In this document: positions 6,436 through 46,319 of the stretch, piece after piece
How positions within the stretch are numbered: the first letter of the stretch is position 1
Layout of the letters: the number at the start of each line of letters is the position of its first letter
Source: Escherichia coli
GTDB taxonomy: Bacteria; Pseudomonadota; Gammaproteobacteria; Enterobacterales; Enterobacteriaceae
Strand: one strand, 5' to 3'
Assembly: GCF_003334255.1 (NCBI RefSeq)
Contig: NZ_QOWU01000007.1
Length of the DNA stretch: 64,000 nucleotides
Notes under the pieces: generated by a model
Told to the model about the DNA's origin: nothing
Database searches by the model: none
Seen by the model: only the letters and a program-made list of their open reading frames with translations
Position numbers and translations under genes: made by a program

Positions 6436-9222
6436 ATGGTTCAGATCCCCCAAAATCCACTTATCCTTGTAGATGGTTCATCTTATCTTTATCGCGCATA
6501 TCACGCGTTTCCCCCGCTGACTAACAGCGCAGGCGAGCCGACCGGTGCGATGTATGGTGTCCTCAACATGCTGCGCAGTCTGATCATGCAATATAAACCG
6601 ACGCATGCAGCGGTGGTCTTTGACGCCAAGGGAAAAACCTTTCGTGATGAACTGTTTGAACATTACAAATCACATCGCCCGCCAATGCCGGACGATCTGC
6701 GTGCACAAATCGAACCCTTGCACGCGATGGTTAAAGCGATGGGACTGCCGCTGCTGGCGGTTTCTGGCGTAGAAGCGGACGACGTTATCGGTACTCTGGC
6801 GCGCGAAGCCGAAAAAGCCGGGCGTCCGGTGCTGATCAGCACTGGCGATAAAGATATGGCGCAGCTGGTGACGCCAAATATTACGCTTATCAATACCATG
6901 ACGAATACCATCCTCGGACCGGAAGAGGTGGTGAATAAGTACGGCGTGCCGCCAGAACTGATCATCGATTTCCTGGCGCTGATGGGTGACTCCTCTGATA
7001 ACATTCCTGGCGTACCGGGCGTCGGTGAAAAAACCGCGCAGGCATTGCTGCAAGGTCTTGGCGGACTGGATACGCTGTATGCCGAGCCAGAAAAAATTGC
7101 TGGGTTGAGCTTCCGTGGCGCGAAAACAATGGCAGCGAAGCTCGAGCAAAACAAAGAAGTTGCTTATCTCTCATACCAGCTGGCGACGATTAAAACCGAC
7201 GTTGAACTGGAGCTGACCTGTGAACAACTGGAAGTGCAGCAACCGGCAGCGGAAGAGTTGTTGGGGCTGTTCAAAAAGTATGAGTTCAAACGCTGGACTG
7301 CTGATGTCGAAGCGGGCAAATGGTTACAGGCCAAAGGGGCAAAACCAGCCGCGAAGCCACAGGAAACCAGTGTTGCAGACGAAGCACCAGAAGTGACGGC
7401 AACGGTGATTTCTTATGACAACTACGTCACCATCCTTGATGAAGAAACACTGAAAGCGTGGATTGCGAAGCTGGAAAAAGCGCCGGTATTTGCATTTGAT
7501 ACCGAAACCGACAGCCTTGATAACATCTCTGCTAACCTGGTCGGGCTTTCTTTTGCTATCGAGCCAGGCGTAGCGGCATATATTCCGGTTGCTCATGATT
7601 ATCTTGATGCGCCCGATCAAATCTCTCGCGAGCGTGCACTCGAGTTGCTAAAACCGCTGCTGGAAGATGAAAAGGCGCTGAAGGTCGGGCAAAACCTGAA
7701 ATACGATCGCGGTATTCTGGCGAACTACGGCATTGAACTGCGTGGGATTGCGTTTGATACCATGCTGGAGTCCTACATTCTCAATAGCGTTGCCGGGCGT
7801 CACGATATGGACAGCCTCGCGGAACGTTGGTTGAAGCACAAAACCATCACTTTTGAAGAGATTGCTGGTAAAGGCAAAAATCAACTGACCTTTAACCAGA
7901 TTGCCCTCGAAGAAGCCGGACGTTACGCCGCCGAAGATGCAGATGTCACCTTGCAGTTGCATCTGAAAATGTGGCCGGATCTGCAAAAACACAAAGGGCC
8001 GTTGAACGTCTTCGAGAATATCGAAATGCCGCTGGTGCCGGTGCTTTCACGCATTGAACGTAACGGTGTGAAGATCGATCCGAAAGTGCTGCACAATCAT
8101 TCTGAAGAGCTCACCCTTCGTCTGGCTGAGCTGGAAAAGAAAGCGCATGAAATTGCAGGTGAGGAATTTAACCTTTCTTCCACCAAGCAGTTACAAACCA
8201 TTCTCTTTGAAAAACAGGGCATTAAACCGCTGAAGAAAACGCCGGGTGGCGCGCCGTCAACGTCGGAAGAGGTACTGGAAGAACTGGCGCTGGACTATCC
8301 GTTGCCAAAAGTGATTCTGGAGTATCGTGGTCTGGCGAAGCTGAAATCGACCTACACCGACAAGCTGCCGCTGATGATCAACCCGAAAACCGGGCGTGTG
8401 CATACCTCTTATCACCAGGCAGTAACTGCAACGGGACGTTTATCGTCAACCGATCCTAACCTGCAAAACATTCCGGTGCGTAACGAAGAAGGTCGTCGTA
8501 TCCGCCAGGCGTTTATTGCGCCAGAGGATTATGTGATTGTCTCAGCGGACTACTCGCAGATTGAACTGCGCATTATGGCGCATCTTTCGCGTGACAAAGG
8601 CTTGCTGACCGCATTCGCGGAAGGAAAAGATATCCACCGGGCAACGGCGGCAGAAGTGTTTGGTTTGCCACTGGAAACCGTCACCAGCGAGCAACGCCGT
8701 AGCGCGAAAGCGATCAACTTTGGTCTGATTTATGGCATGAGTGCTTTCGGTCTGGCGCGGCAATTGAACATTCCACGTAAAGAAGCGCAGAAGTACATGG
8801 ACCTTTACTTCGAACGCTACCCTGGCGTGCTGGAGTATATGGAACGCACCCGTGCTCAGGCGAAAGAGCAGGGCTACGTTGAAACGCTGGACGGACGCCG
8901 TCTGTATCTGCCGGATATCAAATCCAGCAATGGTGCTCGTCGTGCAGCGGCTGAACGTGCAGCCATTAACGCGCCAATGCAGGGAACCGCCGCCGACATT
9001 ATCAAACGGGCGATGATTGCCGTTGATGCGTGGTTACAGGCTGAGCAACCGCGTGTACGTATGATCATGCAGGTACACGATGAACTGGTATTTGAAGTTC
9101 ATAAAGATGATGTTGATGCCGTCGCGAAGCAGATTCATCAACTGATGGAAAACTGTACCCGTCTGGATGTGCCGTTGCTGGTGGAAGTGGGGAGTGGCGA
9201 AAACTGGGATCAGGCGCACTAA
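6436..9222 (+). CDS. polA: DNA polymerase I
   Basis: 928-aa ORF with 5'-3' exonuclease, 3'-5' exonuclease and polymerase domains (e.g. [17 protein letters not shown] motifs). Confidence 0.98.
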
Positions 9223-9368
9223 GATTCGCCTGAACATGCCTTTTTTCGTAAGTAAGCAACATAAGCTGTCACGTTTTGTGATGGCTATTAGAAATTCCTA
9301 TGCAACAACTGAAAAAAAATTACAAAAAGTGCTTTCTGAACTGAACAAAAAAGAGTAAAGTTAGTCGC

Positions 9369-9477
9369 GTAGGGTACAGAGGTAAGATGTTCTATCTTTC
9401 AGACCTTTTACTTCACGTAATCGGATTTGGCTGAATATTTTAGCCGCCCCAGTCAGTAATGACTGGGGCGTTTTTTA
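9369..9477 (+). ncRNA. spf: Spot 42 small regulatory RNA
   Basis: Exact match to the 109-nt Spot 42 sequence (GTAGGGTACAGAGGTAAGATGTTCTATCTTTCAGACC...GCCGCCCCAGTCAGTAATGACTGGGGCGTTTTTTA) including its intrinsic terminator. Confidence 0.95.
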
Positions 9478-9498
9478 TTGGGCGAAAGAAAAGATCCG

Positions 9499-9582
9499 TA
9501 ATGCCTGATGCGCTATGTTTATCAGGCCAACGGTAGAATTGTAATCTATTGAATTTACGGGCCGGATACGCCACATCCGGCA
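9499..9582. repeat. REP-type palindromic elements
   Basis: GCCTGATGCGCTATGTTTATCAGGCC and GCCGGATACGCCACATCCGGC hairpins of the REP family. Confidence 0.7.
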
Positions 9583-9602
9583 CAAGCATTAAGGCAAGAA
9601 AA

Positions 9603-10235
9603 TTATTCGCCGTCCTGCGTTTCTTCTACAGGCTGCATCTCGCTAAACCAGGTATCCAGTTTCTGCCGCAGCTTGTCCACGCCTTGTTTCTTCAACGAAG
9701 AAAACGTTTCAACCTGCACATCACCGTTAAACGCCAGTACAGCTTCACGCACCATATTCAATTGCGCTTTACGTGCGCCGCTTGCCAGTTTGTCCGCTTT
9801 GGTCAGCAGCACCAGAACGGCGATATTGCTGTCTACCGCCCACTCAATCATCTGCTGATCCAAATCTTTCAGCGGATGGCGAATATCCATTAGCACCACC
9901 AGACCTTGCAGGCTCTGACGTTTTTCGAGGTATTCGCCGAGCGCACGCTGCCATTTGCGCTTCATCTCTTCCGGGACTTCCGCATAACCGTACCCAGGCA
10001 AGTCAACCAGACGCTTGCCGTCAGCCACTTCAAACAGGTTGATAAGCTGGGTGCGCCCTGGGGTTTTTGAGGTACGAGCCAGGCTTTTCTGGTTAGTCAG
10101 CGTGTTCAGCGCGCTGGATTTACCTGCGTTGGAACGGCCTGCAAAAGCCACTTCAATTCCGGTATCGGAAGGTAGGTGGCGAATATCAGGCGCACTCATC
10201 ACAAAATGCGTCTGTTGATAATTCAAATTAGTCAA
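9603..10235 (-). CDS. engB: Ribosome biogenesis GTPase EngB (YihA)
   Basis: 210-aa ORF with G1 motif GRSNAGKSS and G3 DLPGYG. Confidence 0.95.
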
Positions 10236-10505
10236 AGCGGTCGTCTCCGTCAGTCAAAGCTTTGTGGCGATTATACCTGAACCATAATAAAAGGCGGATT
10301 TTTCGGCGTGAGCGTTGTAAGTAAAAGCCATACGCTTTGTGAGACATTGCCGATAGTCTTTATGCGAAATAGCAGAGAAAATTCTGCGATGCATGTCAAA
10401 TAAGCTATATAAATCAGTGAATTGCTTTTATATAAAACTCTGAAAATGTGCAAATACTGATGGCGGTTGATTGTTTGTTTAAAGCAAAGGCGTAAAGTAG
10501 CACCC

Positions 10506-10750
10506 ATAGAGCGAGGACGCTAACAGGAACAATGACTCAGGATGAGGGTCAGGAGCGCCAGGAGGCGAAGACAGAGGATTGTCAGGAAGACAAACGTCCG
10601 GAGACGTAATTAAACGGAAATGGAATCAACACGGATTGTTCCGGCTAAAGGAAAAACAGGGTGTGTTGGCGGCCTGCAAGGATTGTAAGACCCGTTAAGG
10701 GTTATGAGTCAGGAAAAAAGGCGACAGAGTAATCTGTCGCCTTTTTTCTT
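10506..10750 (+). ncRNA. csrC: CsrC small RNA (CsrA-sequestering)
   Basis: About 245 nt with many GGA motifs (AGGATGAGGGTCAGGAGCGCCAGGAGGCGAAGACAGAGGATTGTCAGGAAGACA...) ending in a strong terminator (GGCGACAGAGTAATCTGTCGCCTTTTTTCTT). Boundaries approximate. Confidence 0.85.
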
Positions 10751-10816
10751 TGCTTGCTTTCTGTTAGATTCCGCCGCAAATCTATACTGAATAAAACGGC
10801 TAAAAGACGAACCATT

Positions 10817-11326
10817 ATGAAACCATCATCTTCAAACTCACGCAGCAAAGGTCATGCAAAAGCGCGTCGAAAAACACGCGAGGAGCTGGATCAGGAAGCT
10901 CGTGATCGCAAGCGTCAGAAAAAACGTCGTGGTCATGCGCCGGGCAGCCGCGCAGCGGGCGGAAACACCACGTCAGGCAGCAAAGGCCAGAACGCACCAA
11001 AAGATCCACGTATTGGCAGTAAAACCCCTATTCCATTGGGCGTGACTGAAAAAGTCACCAAACAGCACAAACCGAAGAGTGAGAAACCTATGCTTTCACC
11101 GCAGGCGGAGTTGGAATTACTGGAAACGGATGAGCGTCTGGATGCGCTGCTGGAACGTCTGGAAGCAGGCGAAACCCTGAGTGCCGAAGAGCAATCCTGG
11201 GTGGATGCTAAACTGGATCGTATTGATGAGTTGATGCAGAAACTCGGCCTCTCTTATGACGATGACGAAGAAGAGGAAGAAGACGAGAAGCAAGAAGACA
11301 TGATGCGTCTGCTGCGGGGCAACTAA
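10817..11326 (+). CDS. yihI: Der GTPase-activating protein YihI
   Basis: Track ORF 10754-11326 trimmed to [13 protein letters not shown] (169 aa). Highly basic N-terminus and acidic C-terminal tail ([14 protein letters not shown]). Confidence 0.88.
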
Positions 11327-11514
11327 CGGATTGCCGCCGTGGGCCTTCCCGTTCTGCTGATAACCCTTCCGGTTATATGTTATCTGGTGTGGTTATTCGT
11401 TAAACTACAGCGGTTGTCGCGGCGACAAAAGTGGCTGCGCAACCGGCTGATGACCCGAAACGGGCATCCGCCGGTACGCCGTAGCCGCCAGAGACGCCAT
11501 CGGAAGGAGTGAGC

Positions 11515-12888
11515 ATGTCTGTACAGCAAATCGACTGGGATCTGGCCCTGATCCAGAAATATAACTATTCCGGGCCACGATACACCTCGTACCCGACCGC
11601 GCTGGAGTTTTCAGAAGACTTCGGCGAACAGGCGTTTTTACAAGCCGTGGCGCGCTATCCTGAGCGTCCATTATCTCTCTACGTACATATCCCGTTCTGC
11701 CATAAGCTTTGTTACTTCTGCGGTTGCAATAAGATTGTTACTCGCCAGCAGCACAAGGCCGATCAGTATCTGGACGCGCTGGAGCAAGAAATCGTCCATC
11801 GTGCACCGCTGTTCGCCGGGCGTCACGTCAGCCAATTGCACTGGGGCGGCGGAACGCCGACGTATCTGAATAAAGCGCAAATCAGCCGCCTGATGAAGCT
11901 GCTGCGCGAAAACTTCCAGTTCAATGCCGATGCGGAGATTTCGATCGAAGTCGATCCGCGGGAAATCGAACTGGATGTACTCGATCATTTACGCGCCGAA
12001 GGCTTTAATCGCCTGAGCATGGGCGTGCAGGACTTCAACAAAGAAGTGCAACGTCTGGTTAACCGCGAGCAGGATGAAGAGTTCATCTTTGCACTGCTTA
12101 ACCATGCGCGTGAGATTGGTTTTACCTCCACCAACATCGACCTGATTTACGGCCTGCCGAAACAGACGCCGGAGAGTTTCGCCTTTACCCTGAAACGTGT
12201 GGCGGAGCTGAACCCCGATCGTCTGAGTGTCTTTAACTACGCGCATCTGCCGACCATTTTTGCTGCTCAGCGCAAAATCAAAGATGCTGACCTGCCGAGT
12301 CCGCAGCAAAAACTCGATATCCTGCAGGAAACCATCGCCTTCCTGACGCAATCGGGCTATCAGTTTATCGGTATGGATCACTTTGCCCGTCCGGATGACG
12401 AGCTGGCGGTGGCCCAGCGTGAAGGCGTGCTGCATCGTAACTTCCAGGGCTACACCACTCAGGGCGATACCGATCTGCTGGGGATGGGCGTTTCCGCCAT
12501 CAGCATGATTGGCGACTGCTACGCGCAGAACCAGAAAGAGTTGAAGCAGTACTATCAGCAAGTGGATGAACAAGGCAATGCGCTGTGGCGTGGTATTGCG
12601 CTAACGCGTGATGACTGTATTCGCCGCGATGTGATTAAGTCGCTCATCTGCAACTTCCGTCTGGATTACGCCCCTATTGAGAAACAGTGGGATTTGCACT
12701 TCGCTGATTACTTTGCGGAAGATCTCAAGCTGCTCGCCCCGTTAGCAAAAGATGGGCTGGTGGATGTGGATGAGAAGGGAATACAGGTGACGGCGAAAGG
12801 TCGCTTGCTGATCCGCAACATTTGCATGTGCTTTGATACCTATCTGCGCCAGAAAGCGCGGATGCAGCAGTTCTCTCGGGTGATTTAA
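11515..12888 (+). CDS. hemN: Oxygen-independent coproporphyrinogen III dehydrogenase HemN (radical SAM)
   Basis: Radical-SAM CxxxCxxC motif (CHKLCYFCGC). Start set to the second Met of the track ORF, giving 457 aa. Confidence 0.95.
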   Translation: MSVQQIDWDLALIQKYNYSGPRYTSYPTALEFSEDFGEQAFLQAVARYPERPLSLYVHIPFCHKLCYFCGCNKIVTRQQHKADQYLDALEQEIVHRAPLFAGRHVSQLHWGGGTPTYLNKAQISRLMKLLRENFQFNADAEISIEVDPREIELDVLDHLRAEGFNRLSMGVQDFNKEVQRLVNREQDEEFIFALLNHAREIGFTSTNIDLIYGLPKQTPESFAFTLKRVAELNPDRLSVFNYAHLPTIFAAQRKIKDADLPSPQQKLDILQETIAFLTQSGYQFIGMDHFARPDDELAVAQREGVLHRNFQGYTTQGDTDLLGMGVSAISMIGDCYAQNQKELKQYYQQVDEQGNALWRGIALTRDDCIRRDVIKSLICNFRLDYAPIEKQWDLHFADYFAEDLKLLAPLAKDGLVDVDEKGIQVTAKGRLLIRNICMCFDTYLRQKARMQQFSRVI

Positions 12889-12995
12889 ATAGTGAATGGC
12901 GCTTCGTTTACAAAGTAGAAAACGAAAGCGCCATCAATGTGCTGAGAACAAGATTGCCTGATGCGCTGGGCAACAAAACCTGTTGAAATTATTGC

Positions 12996-13103
12996 TTTTG
13001 TAGGCCGGATAAGGCGTTTACGCCGCATCAGGCATCTGAGCATGATGCCTGATGCGGCGCTGGTCGCGTCTTATCAGGCCTACGACTTTCTCCGCATCCG
13101 GCA
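12996..13103. repeat. REP/BIME cluster
   Basis: Repeated GTAGGCCGGATAAGGCGTTTACGCCGCATCAGGC-type palindromic units in alternating orientation. Confidence 0.85.
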
Positions 13104-17635: not shown

Positions 17636-17727
17636 GCGCACCATCGTGCAAAAGGGCTGCACCACGATGTGAATGTTGCACCAATATAGTGCTTCAATGG
17701 AAACATTAAGCACCATGTTGGTGCAAT
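17636..17727. promoter_or_regulatory. NtrC enhancer sites upstream of glnA
   Basis: Multiple TGCACC-N5-GGTGCA-like dyads (GCACCATGTTGGTGCA, TTGCACCAATATAGTGC, TGCACCACGATG). Confidence 0.8.
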
Positions 17728-17876
17728 GACCTTTGGATAACCCTTTTTATGCTCCGTGAAAGCGATCACAAAGGGACTCTGCAATACTTGTTTGCGGAGG
17801 ATGTTTGTGATCCTGTTTTGTAGTGCGATTAATCCGTGTACAATAACGCGCTATTTCTAATGCCTGAGGCAAAGTT

Positions 17877-19700
17877 GTGATCGAAAAATTGCGTAATATC
17901 GCCATCATCGCGCACGTAGACCATGGTAAAACCACCCTGGTAGACAAGCTGCTCCAACAATCCGGTACGTTCGACTCTCGTGCCGAAACCCAAGAGCGCG
18001 TGATGGACTCCAACGATTTGGAGAAAGAGCGTGGGATTACCATCCTCGCGAAAAACACCGCTATCAAATGGAATGATTACCGTATCAACATCGTTGATAC
18101 CCCGGGGCACGCCGACTTCGGTGGTGAAGTTGAACGTGTAATGTCCATGGTAGACTCAGTGCTGCTGGTGGTTGACGCATTTGACGGCCCGATGCCGCAA
18201 ACGCGCTTCGTAACCAAAAAAGCGTTTGCTTACGGCCTGAAGCCGATTGTTGTTATCAACAAAGTTGACCGCCCTGGCGCGCGTCCTGATTGGGTTGTGG
18301 ATCAGGTATTCGATCTGTTCGTTAACCTCGACGCGACCGACGAGCAGCTGGACTTCCCGATCGTTTACGCTTCTGCGCTGAACGGTATCGCGGGTCTGGA
18401 CCACGAAGATATGGCGGAAGACATGACCCCGCTGTACCAGGCGATTGTTGACCACGTTCCTGCGCCGGACGTTGACCTTGACGGTCCGTTCCAGATGCAG
18501 ATTTCTCAGCTCGATTACAACAGCTATGTTGGCGTTATCGGCATTGGCCGCATCAAGCGCGGTAAAGTGAAGCCGAACCAGCAGGTCACTATCATCGATA
18601 GCGAAGGCAAAACCCGCAACGCGAAAGTCGGTAAAGTGCTGGGCCACCTCGGTCTGGAACGTATCGAAACCGATCTGGCGGAAGCTGGCGATATCGTTGC
18701 GATCACGGGCCTTGGCGAACTGAACATTTCTGACACCGTTTGCGACACGCAAAACGTTGAAGCGCTGCCGGCACTCTCCGTTGATGAGCCGACCGTTTCT
18801 ATGTTCTTCTGCGTTAACACCTCGCCGTTCTGCGGTAAAGAAGGTAAGTTCGTAACGTCTCGTCAGATCCTGGATCGTCTGAACAAAGAACTGGTACACA
18901 ACGTTGCGCTGCGCGTAGAAGAAACCGAAGACGCCGATGCGTTCCGCGTTTCTGGTCGTGGCGAACTGCACCTGTCTGTTCTGATCGAAAACATGCGTCG
19001 TGAAGGTTTCGAACTGGCGGTATCCCGTCCGAAAGTTATCTTCCGTGAAATCGACGGTCGTAAACAAGAGCCGTATGAAAACGTGACTCTGGACGTTGAA
19101 GAACAGCATCAGGGTTCTGTAATGCAGGCGCTGGGCGAACGTAAAGGCGACCTGAAAAACATGAATCCAGACGGTAAAGGCCGCGTACGTCTCGACTACG
19201 TGATCCCAAGCCGTGGTCTGATTGGCTTCCGTTCTGAGTTCATGACCATGACTTCCGGTACTGGTCTGCTGTACTCCACCTTCAGCCACTACGACGACGT
19301 ACGTCCGGGTGAAGTGGGTCAGCGTCAGAACGGCGTACTGATCTCTAACGGTCAGGGTAAAGCGGTCGCGTTCGCGCTGTTCGGTCTGCAGGATCGCGGT
19401 AAGCTGTTCCTCGGTCACGGTGCAGAAGTTTACGAAGGTCAGATTATCGGTATTCATAGCCGCTCTAACGACCTGACTGTAAACTGCCTGACCGGTAAGA
19501 AACTGACCAACATGCGTGCTTCCGGTACTGACGAAGCCGTTGTTCTGGTTCCGCCTATCCGCATGACTCTGGAACAAGCTCTGGAGTTCATCGATGATGA
19601 CGAACTGGTAGAAGTGACTCCGACCTCTATCCGTATTCGTAAACGTCACCTGACGGAAAACGATCGTCGCCGCGCCAACCGCGCACCGAAAGACGATTAA
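17877..19700 (+). CDS. typA: Ribosome-associated translational GTPase BipA/TypA
   Basis: 607-aa ORF with a GTG start. EF-G-like GTPase ([21 protein letters not shown]). Confidence 0.97.
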
Positions 19701-19716
19701 TTTCGTTTTTTAGTCA

Positions 19717-19751
19717 TAAAAAACCTGCCAGCGATGGCAGGTTTTTTTTTG
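19717..19751 (+). terminator. Rho-independent terminator after typA
   Basis: AAAAACCTGCCAGCGATGGCAGGTTTTTTTTTG. Confidence 0.85.
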
Positions 19752-19916
19752 CCTGTCGTGAGCGCACACCAATGCGAGTATCTCCCTTATAAGTCTGTGG
19801 TTACGTCAATAGAGAGCTTTGTCACAATTATCTGCAAAGTCATACGCCGTTAATTGCTTTCTTTTTTGGCGTAAGCGTAAGATGCTTCATCTGGTTTAAA
19901 CCAAAAGGATTAAACA

Positions 19917-42241: not shown

Positions 42242-45200
42242 TTACACCTTTTCCACATTCACAAGGAAGGACTTAAACTCCGGCGTCTGCGTGTTCGCAT
42301 CACCAACGAATGGCGTTAAAGTATTGGCAATAAAGCCTTTTTTAGCTACGCCTTCATAGCCCCAGTGAATCGGAATACCGATGGTATCGATATCTTTGCC
42401 GTTCGCTTTCAGCGTGCGAATACGTTTGGTCACCACCGCTTTGGCTTTGATATAGCCACGGTTGGAGGAGACTTTCACGGTATCGCCCTGGGCAATGCCA
42501 AGTTTATTCGCCAGCGACTCCCCGATTTCCACAAACTGCTCTGGCTGCAAAATCGCGTTCAACAGCGCGTGTTTGGTCCAGTAGTGGAAGTGCTCGGTCA
42601 GACGATAGGTGGTTCCGACATACGGGAACTTATCGGCTTTACCCAATGCTTCGGCGTCGTCTTTAAAGATACGTGCAGCCGGGTTCGAGATAACGTTTGG
42701 ATGCAGCGGGTTAGTTCCCAGCGGCGTTTCAAACGGCTCGTAGTGTTCCGGGAACGGACCTTCCGCCATCTTATCGAGGGCAAACAGACGCCCCATGCCT
42801 TCCTGCTGCATGATAAACGGCCCGACGCCGCTACCCGGAGGCGCTGCGCTGTAGTCCGGAATATCCCAGCCGGTCCACTTAGTGCCGTCCCATTTCAGCA
42901 ACTGACGCTTCGGATCCCACGGGTTACCCTGCGGATCTGCGGAGGCGCGGTTATACAGAATGCGGCGGTTAAGCGGCCATGCCCATGCCCAGCCCAGCGT
43001 GTTACCGAGGCCAGACGGATCGGCGTTATCACGGCGTGCCATCTGGTTGCCTTCCGGCGTCCAGCTACCGGCGAAAATCCAGCAGCCACAGGAGGTTGTA
43101 CCGTCATCGCGCAATTGGGCGAACGAACTAAGTTGTTGGCCTTTCTTGACGATAACCGCACCGGTTGCCGGATCGGTAATATCGGCCAGCGCCTTACCGT
43201 TGCTCTCCATCGCCACTTCTTCTGAAGATGGCTCATGCGGAATGGCGTAGTTCCATGTCATGTTGAGCACCTGGTCCGGGTTCGCGCCACCCTGTTCGGC
43301 ATACATCTTGCGCAAGCGCAGGAAGATACCGGAGAGGATCTCGCCGTCAGTCAGCGCAATCCCCGGGGCGTCCGCACCTTTCCAGTGCCACTGTAACCAG
43401 CGACCTGAGTTAACGATAGAACCGTTCTCTTCCGCGAAGCAGGTCGATGGCAGACGGAACACTTCGGTCTGGATCTTCGACGAGTCAACTTCGTTCAGCT
43501 CACCGTGGTTCTGCCAGAAGTTAGAGGTTTCAGTGTTCAGTGGGTCGATGGTGACGAGGAACTTCAGTTTCGACAGACAACCGATCACTTTGTTTTTGTT
43601 CGGGAATGAGGCAACAGGGTTAAAGCCCTGGCAGATATAGCCATTGACCTTGCCCTCTTTCATCATCTCGAAGTATTGCAGGACGTCGTAGCCTTTATCC
43701 CACTTCGGCAACCAGTCAAAGCCCCAGCTATTTTCCGCCGTCGCTTTATCACCAAAGAAGGCCTTCATCATAGAGACGAAGAATTTCGGGTAGTTGCCCC
43801 AGTAGTTTACCTGGCCTTCCAGCAGCGGTTTTGGCGTGTTGGCGGTAAGGTAGGTTTGCAGATCGGTCTGCTTCTCGCTTGGCAGCGTCATGTAACCTGG
43901 CAGGCTCTGCGACAGCAGCCCCAGGTCCGTCAGCCCCTGAATATTGGAGTGACCGCGCAGGGCGTTAACGCCGCCGCCTGCCATCCCCATATTGCCGAGC
44001 AGCAGCTGGATCATCGCCATCGTACGAATGTTTTGCGCACCAACGGAGTGTTGCGTCCAGCCGAGGGCATACAGGAACGAGGCAGTTTTATCGTGAGCAC
44101 TGGTTTCTGCGATGTATTCGCAGACTTTCAGGAACGCGTCTTTTGGCGTACCACAGATGTTTTCAACCACATCTGGCGTGTAGCGGGAAACGTGCTGTTT
44201 CAGCAAGTTCCACACGCAGCGCGGATGTTGCAGCGTGGTATCGCGTTTGGCGAAGCCGTTTTCGTCCAGTTCATAAGTCCAGGAGGATTTATCGTACTTG
44301 CGTTTTTCCGCGTCGTAGCCGGTGAACAGGCCATCTTCAAAGCCGTAATCCTCACGCACGATCAGGCTGGCGTTGGTATAGGCTTCGGTGTATTCGCGGT
44401 TGAATTTTTCATTGTTCAGCAGGTACAGCAATACGCCTGACAGGAAAGCAATGTCAGTACCGGAACGAATAGGGGCATAGTAGTCAGCTACCGCCGCCGT
44501 ACGCGTAAAGCGAGGATCGATCACAATCAGCTTCGCGCCGTTGTGAATTTTGGCTTCCATCGCCCAGCGGAACCCGACCGGGTGAGCTTCAGCGGCATTA
44601 CCGCCCATCACCACGACGAGGTTGGCGTTCTTGATGTCGACCCAGTGGTTGGTCATCGCACCGCGACCAAATGTTGGAGCAAGACTTGCTACCGTTGGTC
44701 CGTGTCAGACACGCGCCTGGTTGTCGACCGCGAGCATACCCAGCGCGCGGGAGAATTTTTGCGTTAAATAGCCGGTTTCGTTACTCGACGCGGAAGCACA
44801 CAGCATCCCGGTGGAGAGCCAGCGGTTAACAGTCACGCCTTCGGCGTTTTGCGCAATGTAGTTAGCATCGCGGTCTTCTTTCATCAGTTTGGCGATGCGA
44901 TCAAACGCCTCTTCCCAACTGATTTGCTGCCATTTATCAGAACCTGGCGCACGGTATTCCGGAAACTTCAGACGGCTTTCGGAGTGGATGAAATCCACCA
45001 GGCCAGCGCCTTTCGGACAAAGTGCACCGCGGTTGACCGGGTGATCCGGATCGCCTTCGATATGGAAGATAGATGCTTTGGCGTTTTTTGCTCCGTCACC
45101 GAGGCTGTACATCAACAGCCCACAGCCTACGGAACAATAGGTGCAGGTATTACGGGTTTCGCGGGTGCGCAGCAGTTTATACTGCCGGGTTTCCGCGAGT

Positions 45201-45292
45201 GCTACGCTGGGTGCAAAACCCAGTGCCGCTGCCGTGGTGCCTGCCATACCGCCAGCGCAGATCTTAAAGAACTGCCTTCTGCTGACCTGCAT
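42242..45292 (-). CDS. fdoG: Formate dehydrogenase-O catalytic subunit; selenoprotein with an in-frame UGA (Sec) at 44705-44707 and a Tat signal peptide
   Basis: Track ORFs 44705-45292 and 42242-44656 are in frame across one TGA (...DNQARV-U-HGPTVASLAPTFGRGAMTNHW...), 1016 codons in total. N-terminal twin-arginine motif (SRRQFFKICAGG). Confidence 0.95.
44655..44707 (-). other. Selenocysteine UGA codon plus downstream SECIS-like region of fdoG
   Basis: UGA followed by CACGGACCAACGGUAGCAAGUCUUGCUCC..., analogous in position to the fdhF-type bacterial SECIS directly 3' of the UGA. Confidence 0.65.
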
Positions 45293-45485
45293 GGATTGCT
45301 CCTTGTTTCGACATTGTCACGTCCCATTTACATTCGCTTGCTGCGTGTGCAGGGAGTGGGAGTTATTTTTCTTTGCGGAAGGGGCCGCAAAGGTCCAGAA
45401 TTGGCTCAATTTCCCTCCATCCAGGAAGGGTTTGTAACAGAATACCATAATGTTGGTGTGTGTGTTCTTATCTGGTTAAGAGAAA

Positions 45486-46319
45486 GTGAAAAAAACACAG
45501 CGAAAAGAAATCGAAAATGTGACAAATATCACAGGTGTTCGTCAAATTGAGTTATGGCGGCGTGATGATTTACAACACCCACGGTTAGATGAGGTCGCGG
45601 AAGAAGTTCCCGTTGCGCTGGTCTACAACGGCATTTCGCATGTGGTGATGATGGCGTCGCCCAAAGACCTTGAGTACTTTGCGCTCGGTTTTTCGCTTTC
45701 CGAGGGGATTATCGAAAGTCCGCGCGATATCTTCGGCATGGATGTCGTTCCTTCCTGTAATGGTCTTGAAGTACAAATTGAGCTTTCCAGCCGCCGCTTT
45801 ATGGGGTTGAAGGAGCGCCGCCGGGCGCTGGCGGGACGTACGGGCTGTGGCGTATGCGGCGTGGAGCAACTTAATGACATCGGAAAACCGGTGCAGCCGC
45901 TACCGTTCACCCAGACGTTTGATCTCAACAAACTGGATGATGCATTACGTCATCTCAACGATTTTCAGCCAGTGGGGCAACTGACTGGTTGTACTCACGC
46001 CGCTGCCTGGATGTTGCCATCTGGCGAACTGGTCGGCGGGCATGAAGACGTGGGTCGCCATGTGGCGCTGGACAAACTGTTAGGCCGCCGGTCACAAGAA
46101 GGGGAAAGCTGGCAGCAAGGTGCGGTACTGGTTTCCAGTCGTGCCAGTTATGAAATGGTGCAAAAGTCGGCGATGTGCGGCGTAGAGATTTTGTTTGCGG
46201 TGTCTGCCGCGACCACGCTTGCTGTAGAAGTGGCTGAGCGCTGTAATCTGACACTGGTAGGTTTTTGTAAACCGGGTCGGGCAACGGTTTATACCCATCC
46301 GCAGCGTTTGAGCAATTAA
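45486..46319 (+). CDS. fdhD: Formate dehydrogenase sulfurtransferase/accessory protein FdhD
   Basis: 277-aa ORF, divergent from fdoGHI. Confidence 0.95.

Follow-up and report, generated by a model that had tools for sequence, protein, structure and literature searches.

What is to be made of a long reading frame that is broken by one internal stop codon? On the minus strand of the E. coli window analysed here (the whole stretch of DNA, 64 kb), positions 42242-45292 translate into 1016 codons and a terminal stop, with a single internal stop at codon 196: a TGA (CDS nt 586-588; window positions 44705-44707, minus strand) preceded by ...DNQARV and followed by HGPTVASLAPTF.... A mechanical ORF list reports two pieces, 44705..45292 (195 aa) and 42242..44656 (804 aa, restarting at Met212). 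The original prediction had proposed that these belong to one catalytic subunit, split into two ORFs by the TGA within its DNQARV context and with molybdopterin-oxidoreductase sequence on either side; translation reproduced the interruption, the split is seen in the ORF list, and both halves align with the same structure (1kqf) and the same protein family (TIGR01553). Together with the score of a downstream Rfam SECIS_3 element, these two alignments mean that the interrupted frame is not a product of chance. With a probability of roughly 97%, we read the region as E. coli fdoG, encoding the 1016-residue catalytic subunit of the respiratory formate dehydrogenase-O as one polypeptide. E. coli has three classical selenoprotein genes, and fdoG is among them.

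Annotated E. coli genomes that match exactly, and a solved structure, settle what the locus is. E. coli chromosomes match the fdoG DNA at 100% identity and carry it as one annotated CDS of 3051 nt. The K-12 gene (b3894, NP_418330.1) is the same gene, likewise of 3051 nt and with TGA at codon 196, and differs by 2 nt and 0 amino acids, both nucleotide differences being silent and outside the SECIS; the predicted name fdoG thus holds, and the operon context agrees with it. For protein searches, position 196 was entered as 'X'. The joined protein scores 1572.8 bits on NCBIfam TIGR01553 (cut-off 814.2), with residues 2-1015 spanning profile positions 1-1009 of 1009. Both halves also align end to end with the crystal structure of FdnG (1kqf; residues 1-1015, 1902 bits, E = 0), and X196 of FdoG falls on X196 of FdnG, its selenocysteine position. 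Three Pfam domains were found, Molybdop_Fe4S4 (PF04879), Molybdopterin (PF00384) and Molydop_binding (PF01568), the second of which (residues 107-589) crosses the UGA without a break. PF04879 (residues 44-103, E = 5.4e-16) includes the four [4Fe-4S] cysteines C50, C53, C57 and C92 (codons 50-92; 45017..45145, minus strand). The Sec-His pair is present as U196-H197 and the conserved arginine as R446, within NALRGHS. On the basis of frame, identity and profiles, 42242..45292 (minus strand) is accordingly listed as the CDS of the catalytic alpha subunit of formate dehydrogenase-O, a molybdo-selenoprotein.

The surroundings are those of the fdo and not the fdn locus. Downstream on the minus strand lie fdoH, the iron-sulfur beta subunit (41327..42229; TIGR01582, 478.7 bits), which starts 9 nt past the fdoG stop codon; fdoI, the cytochrome b556 gamma subunit (40695..41330; NF007924, 453.3 bits), which overlaps fdoH by 4 nt; and fdhE, an accessory protein (39769..40698; NF002925, 604 bits), with a 4-nt overlap with fdoI. 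Upstream of fdoG and divergent from it, on the plus strand, is fdhD, a sulfurtransferase (45486..46319; TIGR00129, 340 bits). RefSeq and K-12 annotation agree with all four assignments, and the neighbours of K-12 fdoG are the same fdoH, fdoI, fdhE and fdhD. The gamma subunit also distinguishes the two loci, scoring 453 bits on the FdoI-type family NF007924 versus 244 bits on the FdnI-type NF007558. As to the accessory genes, fdhE is needed for the periplasmic formate dehydrogenases and the fdhD product sulfurates the molybdenum cofactor (PMC10609526).

Is the TGA accompanied by a signal for recoding, as the prediction of a selenoprotein with a downstream SECIS demands? Within the CDS and directly 3' of the UGA, Rfam RF01989 (SECIS_3) identifies a bacterial SECIS, that is, a SelB-binding hairpin, at 44652..44710 (minus strand), its match starting 3 nt ahead of the UGA. 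The match covers the full model (1-59 of 59) with 84.3 bits, where the gathering score is 63 (E = 2e-19, or 1.4e-18 when the whole window was scanned on both strands), and no other SECIS match in the 64 kb reaches that score. On the related model SECIS_2, the same element reaches only 28.1 bits. In the minimum-free-energy fold, numbered from the U of the UGA, the U at +17 is bulged and positions +23 to +25 form a GUC loop, which holds G23 and U24; these positions, the bulged U17 and the loop G23/U24, are the determinants of SelB binding (PMC8659212). Folding the sequence 3' of the UGA, a check suggested along with the original prediction, yielded the expected hairpin in a 56-nt segment, at a stability like that of shuffled sequences: -16.7 kcal/mol, z = -0.99, with 29 of 200 shuffles folding at least as well. 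Since folding stability is undistinctive, we relied on the covariance model, the determinant positions and comparative evidence for the SECIS. Against the Rfam consensus structure, 2 of 16 pairs are non-canonical in the fdoG sequence, and the lower stem is out of register with it in the minimum-free-energy fold.

The comparative evidence comes from three relatives. The second check that had been proposed, alignment to fdhF and fdnG, places a TGA at the equivalent codon in both, and together with the translation and the 1kqf alignment it marks codon 196 (44705..44707, minus strand), followed by C (UGA-C), as one that would be decoded as selenocysteine. The product of fdnG, formate dehydrogenase-N, shares 77% amino-acid identity and the same domain order with FdoG; K-12 fdnG likewise has TGA at codon 196 followed by C, is identical to fdoG over the 48 nt from the UGA, and obtains an equal SECIS_3 score. 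It is a paralogue at another locus (fdnGHI, nitrate-inducible), where fdhD and fdhE are not among the neighbours. The gene whose SECIS is the bacterial model, fdhF (formate dehydrogenase-H), has UGA-C at codon 140 and a hairpin with a bulged U17 and loop G23/U24. Its catalytic Sec-His pair (...ARV-U-HGP...) is like that of FdoG, whereas its product, a cytoplasmic protein of 715 residues without a Tat signal, is not. The fdhF element belongs to Rfam SECIS_2 and that of fdoG to SECIS_3, the type of enterobacterial fdnG and fdoG; between them, one pair in the apical stem shows a compensatory change, A-U in fdoG versus U-A in fdhF. Finally, an fdnGHI-like operon on the E. coli plasmid pN96-1 (WP_000395613.1) has the same three genes and a twin-arginine N-terminus (NRRQFFR), but its catalytic gene carries TGT (Cys) where fdoG has TGA and is one unbroken ORF of 1016 codons. 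It encodes HGPTVAALAPTFGRGAM, nearly the same active-site peptide as FdoG, and yet its SECIS region departs from that of fdoG at 14 of 59 nt, C replaces G23, and no Rfam SECIS match at the gathering score was obtained. This Cys-type gene is a natural negative control for the SECIS. The original prediction had named the absence of a SECIS-like structure, together with a genuinely shorter protein at this locus, as what would speak against it; we found a SECIS and a full-length frame.

Between fdoG and fdnG, the longest identical run (71 nt, CDS 583-653) covers exactly the UGA and the SECIS, as compared to a next longest run of 36 nt and an overall nucleotide identity of 74.8%. Over codons 197-215, all 18 of 18 synonymously variable codons are identical in the two genes, versus 58% gene-wide. 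Such a synonymous freeze across the SECIS region suggests an extra constraint acting on the RNA, and the 71-nt identity could in part reflect gene conversion. That recurrent gene conversion between the two loci, and not purifying selection alone, maintains this identity, or that the fdoG 5' leader folds into a temperature-responsive structure, we regard as unlikely; the leader scored 36.5 bits against the Rfam family 'FdoG-1 5' UTR thermometer', under its threshold of 50, and neither reading changes the finding for fdoG.

Could the TGA simply be a nonsense mutation, leaving fdoG a pseudogene with a 195-residue truncation and the 804-codon ORF a dead remnant? The mechanical list, with its two ORFs parted by a stop, is compatible with this, and we nevertheless judge it highly improbable. 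Across 5425 E. coli records, the 101 nt round the UGA show an identity of 99% or more, a threshold that tolerates one mismatch per genome over this length, and 5426 of 5426 genomes have a match. The paralogues fdnG and fdhF have TGA at the homologous codon, the part downstream of it is fully conserved and aligned to the last residue of 1kqf, a SECIS above the gathering score follows the TGA, and the RefSeq annotation is of one CDS; moreover, formate dehydrogenase-O is enzymatically active and its polypeptides have been observed (PMC3160892). Hardly more credible is a pair of separate genes, one for a Tat-targeted Fe-S protein of 195 residues and the other for a molybdopterin protein of 804 residues with its own start at Met212. 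An ATG is indeed available at codon 212 (ORF 42242..44656), but a start there would forfeit the conserved residues 196-211 (U-HGPTVASLAPTFGRGA) with the catalytic Sec-His pair; the Molybdopterin domain runs across the UGA, and the Cys-type plasmid homologue is a single uninterrupted frame.

It is conceivable, too, that a standard near-cognate tRNA (Trp or Cys) and not Sec-tRNA(Sec) reads the UGA, the hairpin being incidental. UGA-C is a leaky stop context, and the hairpin is no more stable than its shuffled controls, both of which count in favour of such read-through. A fortuitous hairpin, however, is difficult to reconcile with the covariance-model match at E = 2e-19, with U17, G23 and U24 at canonical spacing, or with synonymous sites that are frozen across the element and free in the Cys-encoding homologue, and a selC mutant is without formate dehydrogenase-N/O activity (PMC3160892); near-cognate decoding therefore appears to us as remote as the two preceding readings. 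The reading of the fdoG UGA as a selenocysteine codon is thus the one supported, by the literature as regards selenium incorporation and by covariance model and comparison as regards the SECIS.

For this gene, such incorporation is hardly a new proposal: full-length, selenium-containing FdoG has already been reported. Each of the three formate dehydrogenases of E. coli is described as containing selenocysteine, and mutation of selC abolished the activity of Fdh-N/O (PMC3160892). No tRNA gene was found in the window, nor does it contain selA, selB, selC or selD. That the source genome has the selenocysteine machinery is inferred, as the window is E. coli DNA and 5425 of 5426 complete genomes of this species carry an annotated tRNA-Sec.

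The N-terminus had been predicted to carry a twin-arginine motif and to direct export via Tat. FdoG begins with MQVSRRQFFK..., SRRQFFK occupying residues 4-10, and the Tat signal peptide comprises residues 1-33 (MQVSRRQFFKICAGGMAGTTAAALGFAPSVALA, then ETRQ; 45194..45292, minus strand). Residues 11-33 form a hydrophobic stretch (mean Kyte-Doolittle +1.41) that leads up to ALA ahead of E34. FdoG and FdnG agree in their first 19 residues, SRRQFFK included, except that Q2 of FdoG corresponds to D2 in FdnG. A table of E. coli Tat substrates gives exactly these 33 residues as the signal peptide of FdoG (PMC7549933, Table 2), and FdoGHI has been described as periplasmic, its catalytic subunit having a typical Tat signal (PMC10609526). 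In contrast, the generic Tat-signal HMM TIGR01409 gave 10.2 bits on FdoG, below its cut-off of 16.7 (E = 0.79), and a Pfam search of the protein returned no TAT_signal domain; the Tat call therefore rests on motif, homology and literature. Profiles as short as these generic ones test only weakly for a Tat signal and count for less than the family-specific evidence. Sequence features thus support a genuine Tat signal on FdoG, while export itself is taken from the literature, with one refinement of the original prediction: the exported unit is thought to be the FdoG-FdoH heterodimer, not FdoG alone (PMC4273604).

How might these elements work together? The steps that follow draw on established knowledge of selenocysteine in E. 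coli and on the papers cited above, not on the present sequence. SelB-GTP carrying Sec-tRNA(Sec) would bind the apical stem-loop of the SECIS (U17, G23/U24), which lies some 11 nt away from the UGA, and bring selenocysteine to the UGA in the A site, where release factor 2 competes; UGA-C, a weak context for termination, would favour recoding. Sec196, beside His197, would then ligate the bis-MGD molybdenum as in the FdnG structure, the sulfurated cofactor being supplied by FdhD. Once folded and loaded with its cofactor, FdoG would pair with FdoH, and its signal peptide would direct the complex, helped by FdhE, through the Tat pathway. Docked on FdoI, the cytochrome in the membrane, the complex would oxidise formate on the periplasmic side.

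Altogether, this is a textbook selenoprotein gene, whose UGA/SECIS recoding, Tat signal and operon are already documented in papers and reference annotation, and nothing in our analysis is new in this respect. Its use is rather as a reminder for annotation: naive ORF and gene callers break genes of this kind in two at the UGA, and pipelines should join the halves, for instance with the aid of a selenoprotein-aware caller or of a SECIS model. Comparison with the plasmid gene of Cys type illustrates that synonymous sites of the RNA, rather than the peptide it encodes, hold the SECIS signal. As a matter of naming only, PGAP labels fdoG as 'fdnG' in many RefSeq genomes.

Is the stop codon inside fdoG, which encodes the catalytic alpha subunit of formate dehydrogenase-O, a genuine selenocysteine codon? 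Translation of window 42242-45292 on the reverse strand yields 1016 sense codons plus a terminal stop, with a single internal stop, and begins with MQVSRRQFFK. The internal stop is the TGA of codon 196 (44705-44707), followed by a C and flanked by GMLAVDNQARV on one side and HGPTVASLAPTFGRG on the other, so that the original prediction had both its position and its sequence context right. It had likewise said that ORF calling cuts the gene in two: the mechanical ORF list contains one ORF of 195 codons (44705..45292) and another of 804 codons (42242..44656), the latter restarting at Met212. That fdoG encodes a selenoprotein is established textbook knowledge; the sole practical value of the finding is as a reminder that selenocysteine-unaware gene callers split such genes.

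The identity of the locus is clear. Many E. coli chromosomes match its 3051 nt at 100% identity, and each of the 5426 complete E. coli genomes has a place where at least 80% of the query is covered; from K-12 b3894 the window copy differs at two nucleotides and no amino acid. RefSeq holds the stretch as one CDS, with fdoH, fdoI and fdhE after it and the divergent fdhD before it, matching the gene order annotated in K-12 MG1655 (fdoG, fdoH, fdoI, fdhE, fdhD); the adjoining ORFs match models of the FDH beta subunit, an FdoI-type cytochrome b556, FdhE and FdhD. PGAP names this CDS ‘fdnG, formate dehydrogenase-N subunit alpha’, as it does the fdo-locus gene in many genomes of the species. NCBIfam TIGR01553, the family that FdoG matches best, carries this name as its description, so gene names alone would confuse the paralogues fdoG and fdnG.

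When the joined protein was searched with an X at position 196, it scored 1572.8 bits against TIGR01553 (cut-off 814.2), matched the Pfam domains Molybdop_Fe4S4, Molybdopterin and Molydop_binding, and aligned over residues 1-1015 with the FdnG crystal structure (PDB 1kqf; 1902 bits), X196 falling on X196. The Molybdopterin domain (residues 107-589) spans the UGA, bearing out that conserved molybdopterin-oxidoreductase sequence lies on both sides of it.

A SECIS element had been anticipated 3′ of the UGA, and one was found. Rfam SECIS_3 (RF01989) matches 44652-44710 on the reverse strand over the full model length, starting 3 nt ahead of the UGA, with 84.3 bits where the gathering score is 63 (E = 2e-19); no other SECIS hit reaches its gathering score on either strand of the 64 kb window. 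Numbered from the U of the UGA codon, the minimum-free-energy fold joins G15-G16 to C31-C32, bulges out U17, and closes the loop G23-U24-C25 with a stem of A18 to A22 against U26 to U30. The determinants published for SelB binding are the same: U17 bulged and G23/U24 in the loop of an apical hairpin of 17 nt, about 11 nt from the UGA (PMC8659212). By itself, the fold energy does not distinguish the element from shuffled sequences (z = -0.99); the lower stem allows two pairing registers and, of 16 Rfam consensus pairs, two are non-canonical in fdoG.

The K-12 paralogues carry the same codon. In K-12 fdnG the TGA is again codon 196, and the 48 nt from the UGA onward are the same as in fdoG; in K-12 fdhF it is codon 140, with a hairpin that is related but belongs to SECIS_2. 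The UGA-C context is common to all three. The fdoG and fdnG coding sequences are 74.8% identical, yet their longest identical run, 71 nt (CDS 583-653, window 44640-44710, reverse strand; the second-longest is 36 nt), covers exactly the UGA and SECIS. Moreover, all 18 synonymously variable codons within 197-215 are identical, compared to 58% gene-wide (naive probability ~5e-5). Such a pattern indicates constraint at the RNA level beyond that on the protein. Gene conversion could also contribute to the 71-nt identity, two sequences alone leaving it indistinguishable from RNA selection.

A natural negative control is provided by the E. coli N96 plasmid pN96-1, found among the weaker matches, which carries an fdnG/fdxH/fdnI-like operon (NZ_JBXULY010000002.1, 8446-13042) with IS elements on either side. 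The alpha subunit there is encoded by 1016 codons without interruption, and TGT (Cys) stands where fdoG has its Sec codon. The peptide is nearly the same as that of FdoG (LCHGPTVAALAPTFGRGAM), but 14 of 59 SECIS positions are changed, including a C in place of G23, and no SECIS match reaches the Rfam gathering score. Hence conservation of the peptide does not account for the SECIS signal in fdoG.

In 5425 E. coli records, the 101 nt around the UGA show 99% identity or more; since the fdnG copy differs at 4 of these 101 nt, the records represent fdoG itself. Matches to this region include 25 plasmid-borne places in E. coli. An annotated tRNA-Sec gene is present in 5425 of the 5426 complete genomes (one lacks a selC match, and one record has two copies). 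The window contains neither tRNA nor sel genes, so the presence of the selenocysteine machinery is inferred from the organism.

Could fdoG instead be a pseudogene, two separate genes, or a frame in which a near-cognate tRNA reads through the UGA? Each of these readings is contradicted: the TGA region is conserved across E. coli, domains continue through the UGA, a SECIS model matches, synonymous sites are frozen, and selC dependence has been published, a selC mutant lacking the Fdh-N/O activity band (PMC3160892). The same work counts all three E. coli Fdh enzymes as selenoproteins and identified the FdoG, FdoH and FdoI polypeptides by mass spectrometry. In what it observed and in how it interpreted it, the original prediction was right.

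The predicted Tat signal was borne out as well. SRRQFFK occupies residues 4-10, residues 11-33 are hydrophobic (mean Kyte-Doolittle +1.41) and end in ALA, and E34 follows; a published table gives exactly this peptide of 33 residues as the Tat signal of FdoG (PMC7549933). Generic Tat profiles stayed below threshold on FdoG, a shortfall ascribed here to how short such profiles are. FdnGHI and FdoGHI are membrane-bound periplasmic complexes whose catalytic subunits bear typical Tat signal peptides; FdhD and FdhE, whose genes flank the fdo operon, are respectively a sulfurtransferase for the cofactor and a protein that interacts with FdnG and FdoG and is required for the periplasmic enzymes only (PMC10609526). 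FdoGH is one of the listed pairs whose export probably occurs as a heterodimer via one signal peptide (PMC4273604).

The single UGA-containing frame, canonical SECIS determinants, Tat signal, Fe-S cysteines, Sec-His pair, R446 and operon with accessory genes are all seen in the sequence. Judging from the established E. coli system and the papers cited, SelB-GTP-Sec-tRNA(Sec) would bind the SECIS apical loop and decode the UGA against RF2 competition. Sec196 would then ligate molybdenum as in FdnG, FdhD would supply the sulfurated bis-MGD cofactor, and folded FdoGH would be exported via Tat with the help of FdhE before docking on FdoI.

The fdoG 5′ leader into the first codons (45263-45499, reverse strand) gave a sub-threshold match to Rfam RF02778, ‘FdoG-1 5′ UTR thermometer’ (36.5 bits, gathering score 50; E = 1.2e-7 for a 361-nt stretch). 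The alignment is good over the Shine-Dalgarno, start-codon and first-codon region only, the upstream helices aligning poorly with a 53-nt insertion. Downstream, the operon is tightly packed (39769-42244, reverse strand), with 9 nt between the fdoG stop codon and the fdoH ATG and 4-nt overlaps at fdoH/fdoI and fdoI/fdhE, which suggests translational coupling. Matches to naRNA4 and ES036 directly downstream of fdhE (39484-39566) are under the Rfam threshold. Other Rfam matches in the window are to a 5S rRNA gene end, Spot 42, CsrC, ES222, STnc370 and REP-like naRNA4 (1-104, 9359-9477, 10506-10759, 17688-17795, 19685-19753, 13003-13080 and 62609-62686), an arrangement that fits the K-12 region running from rrnA to past fdoGHI.
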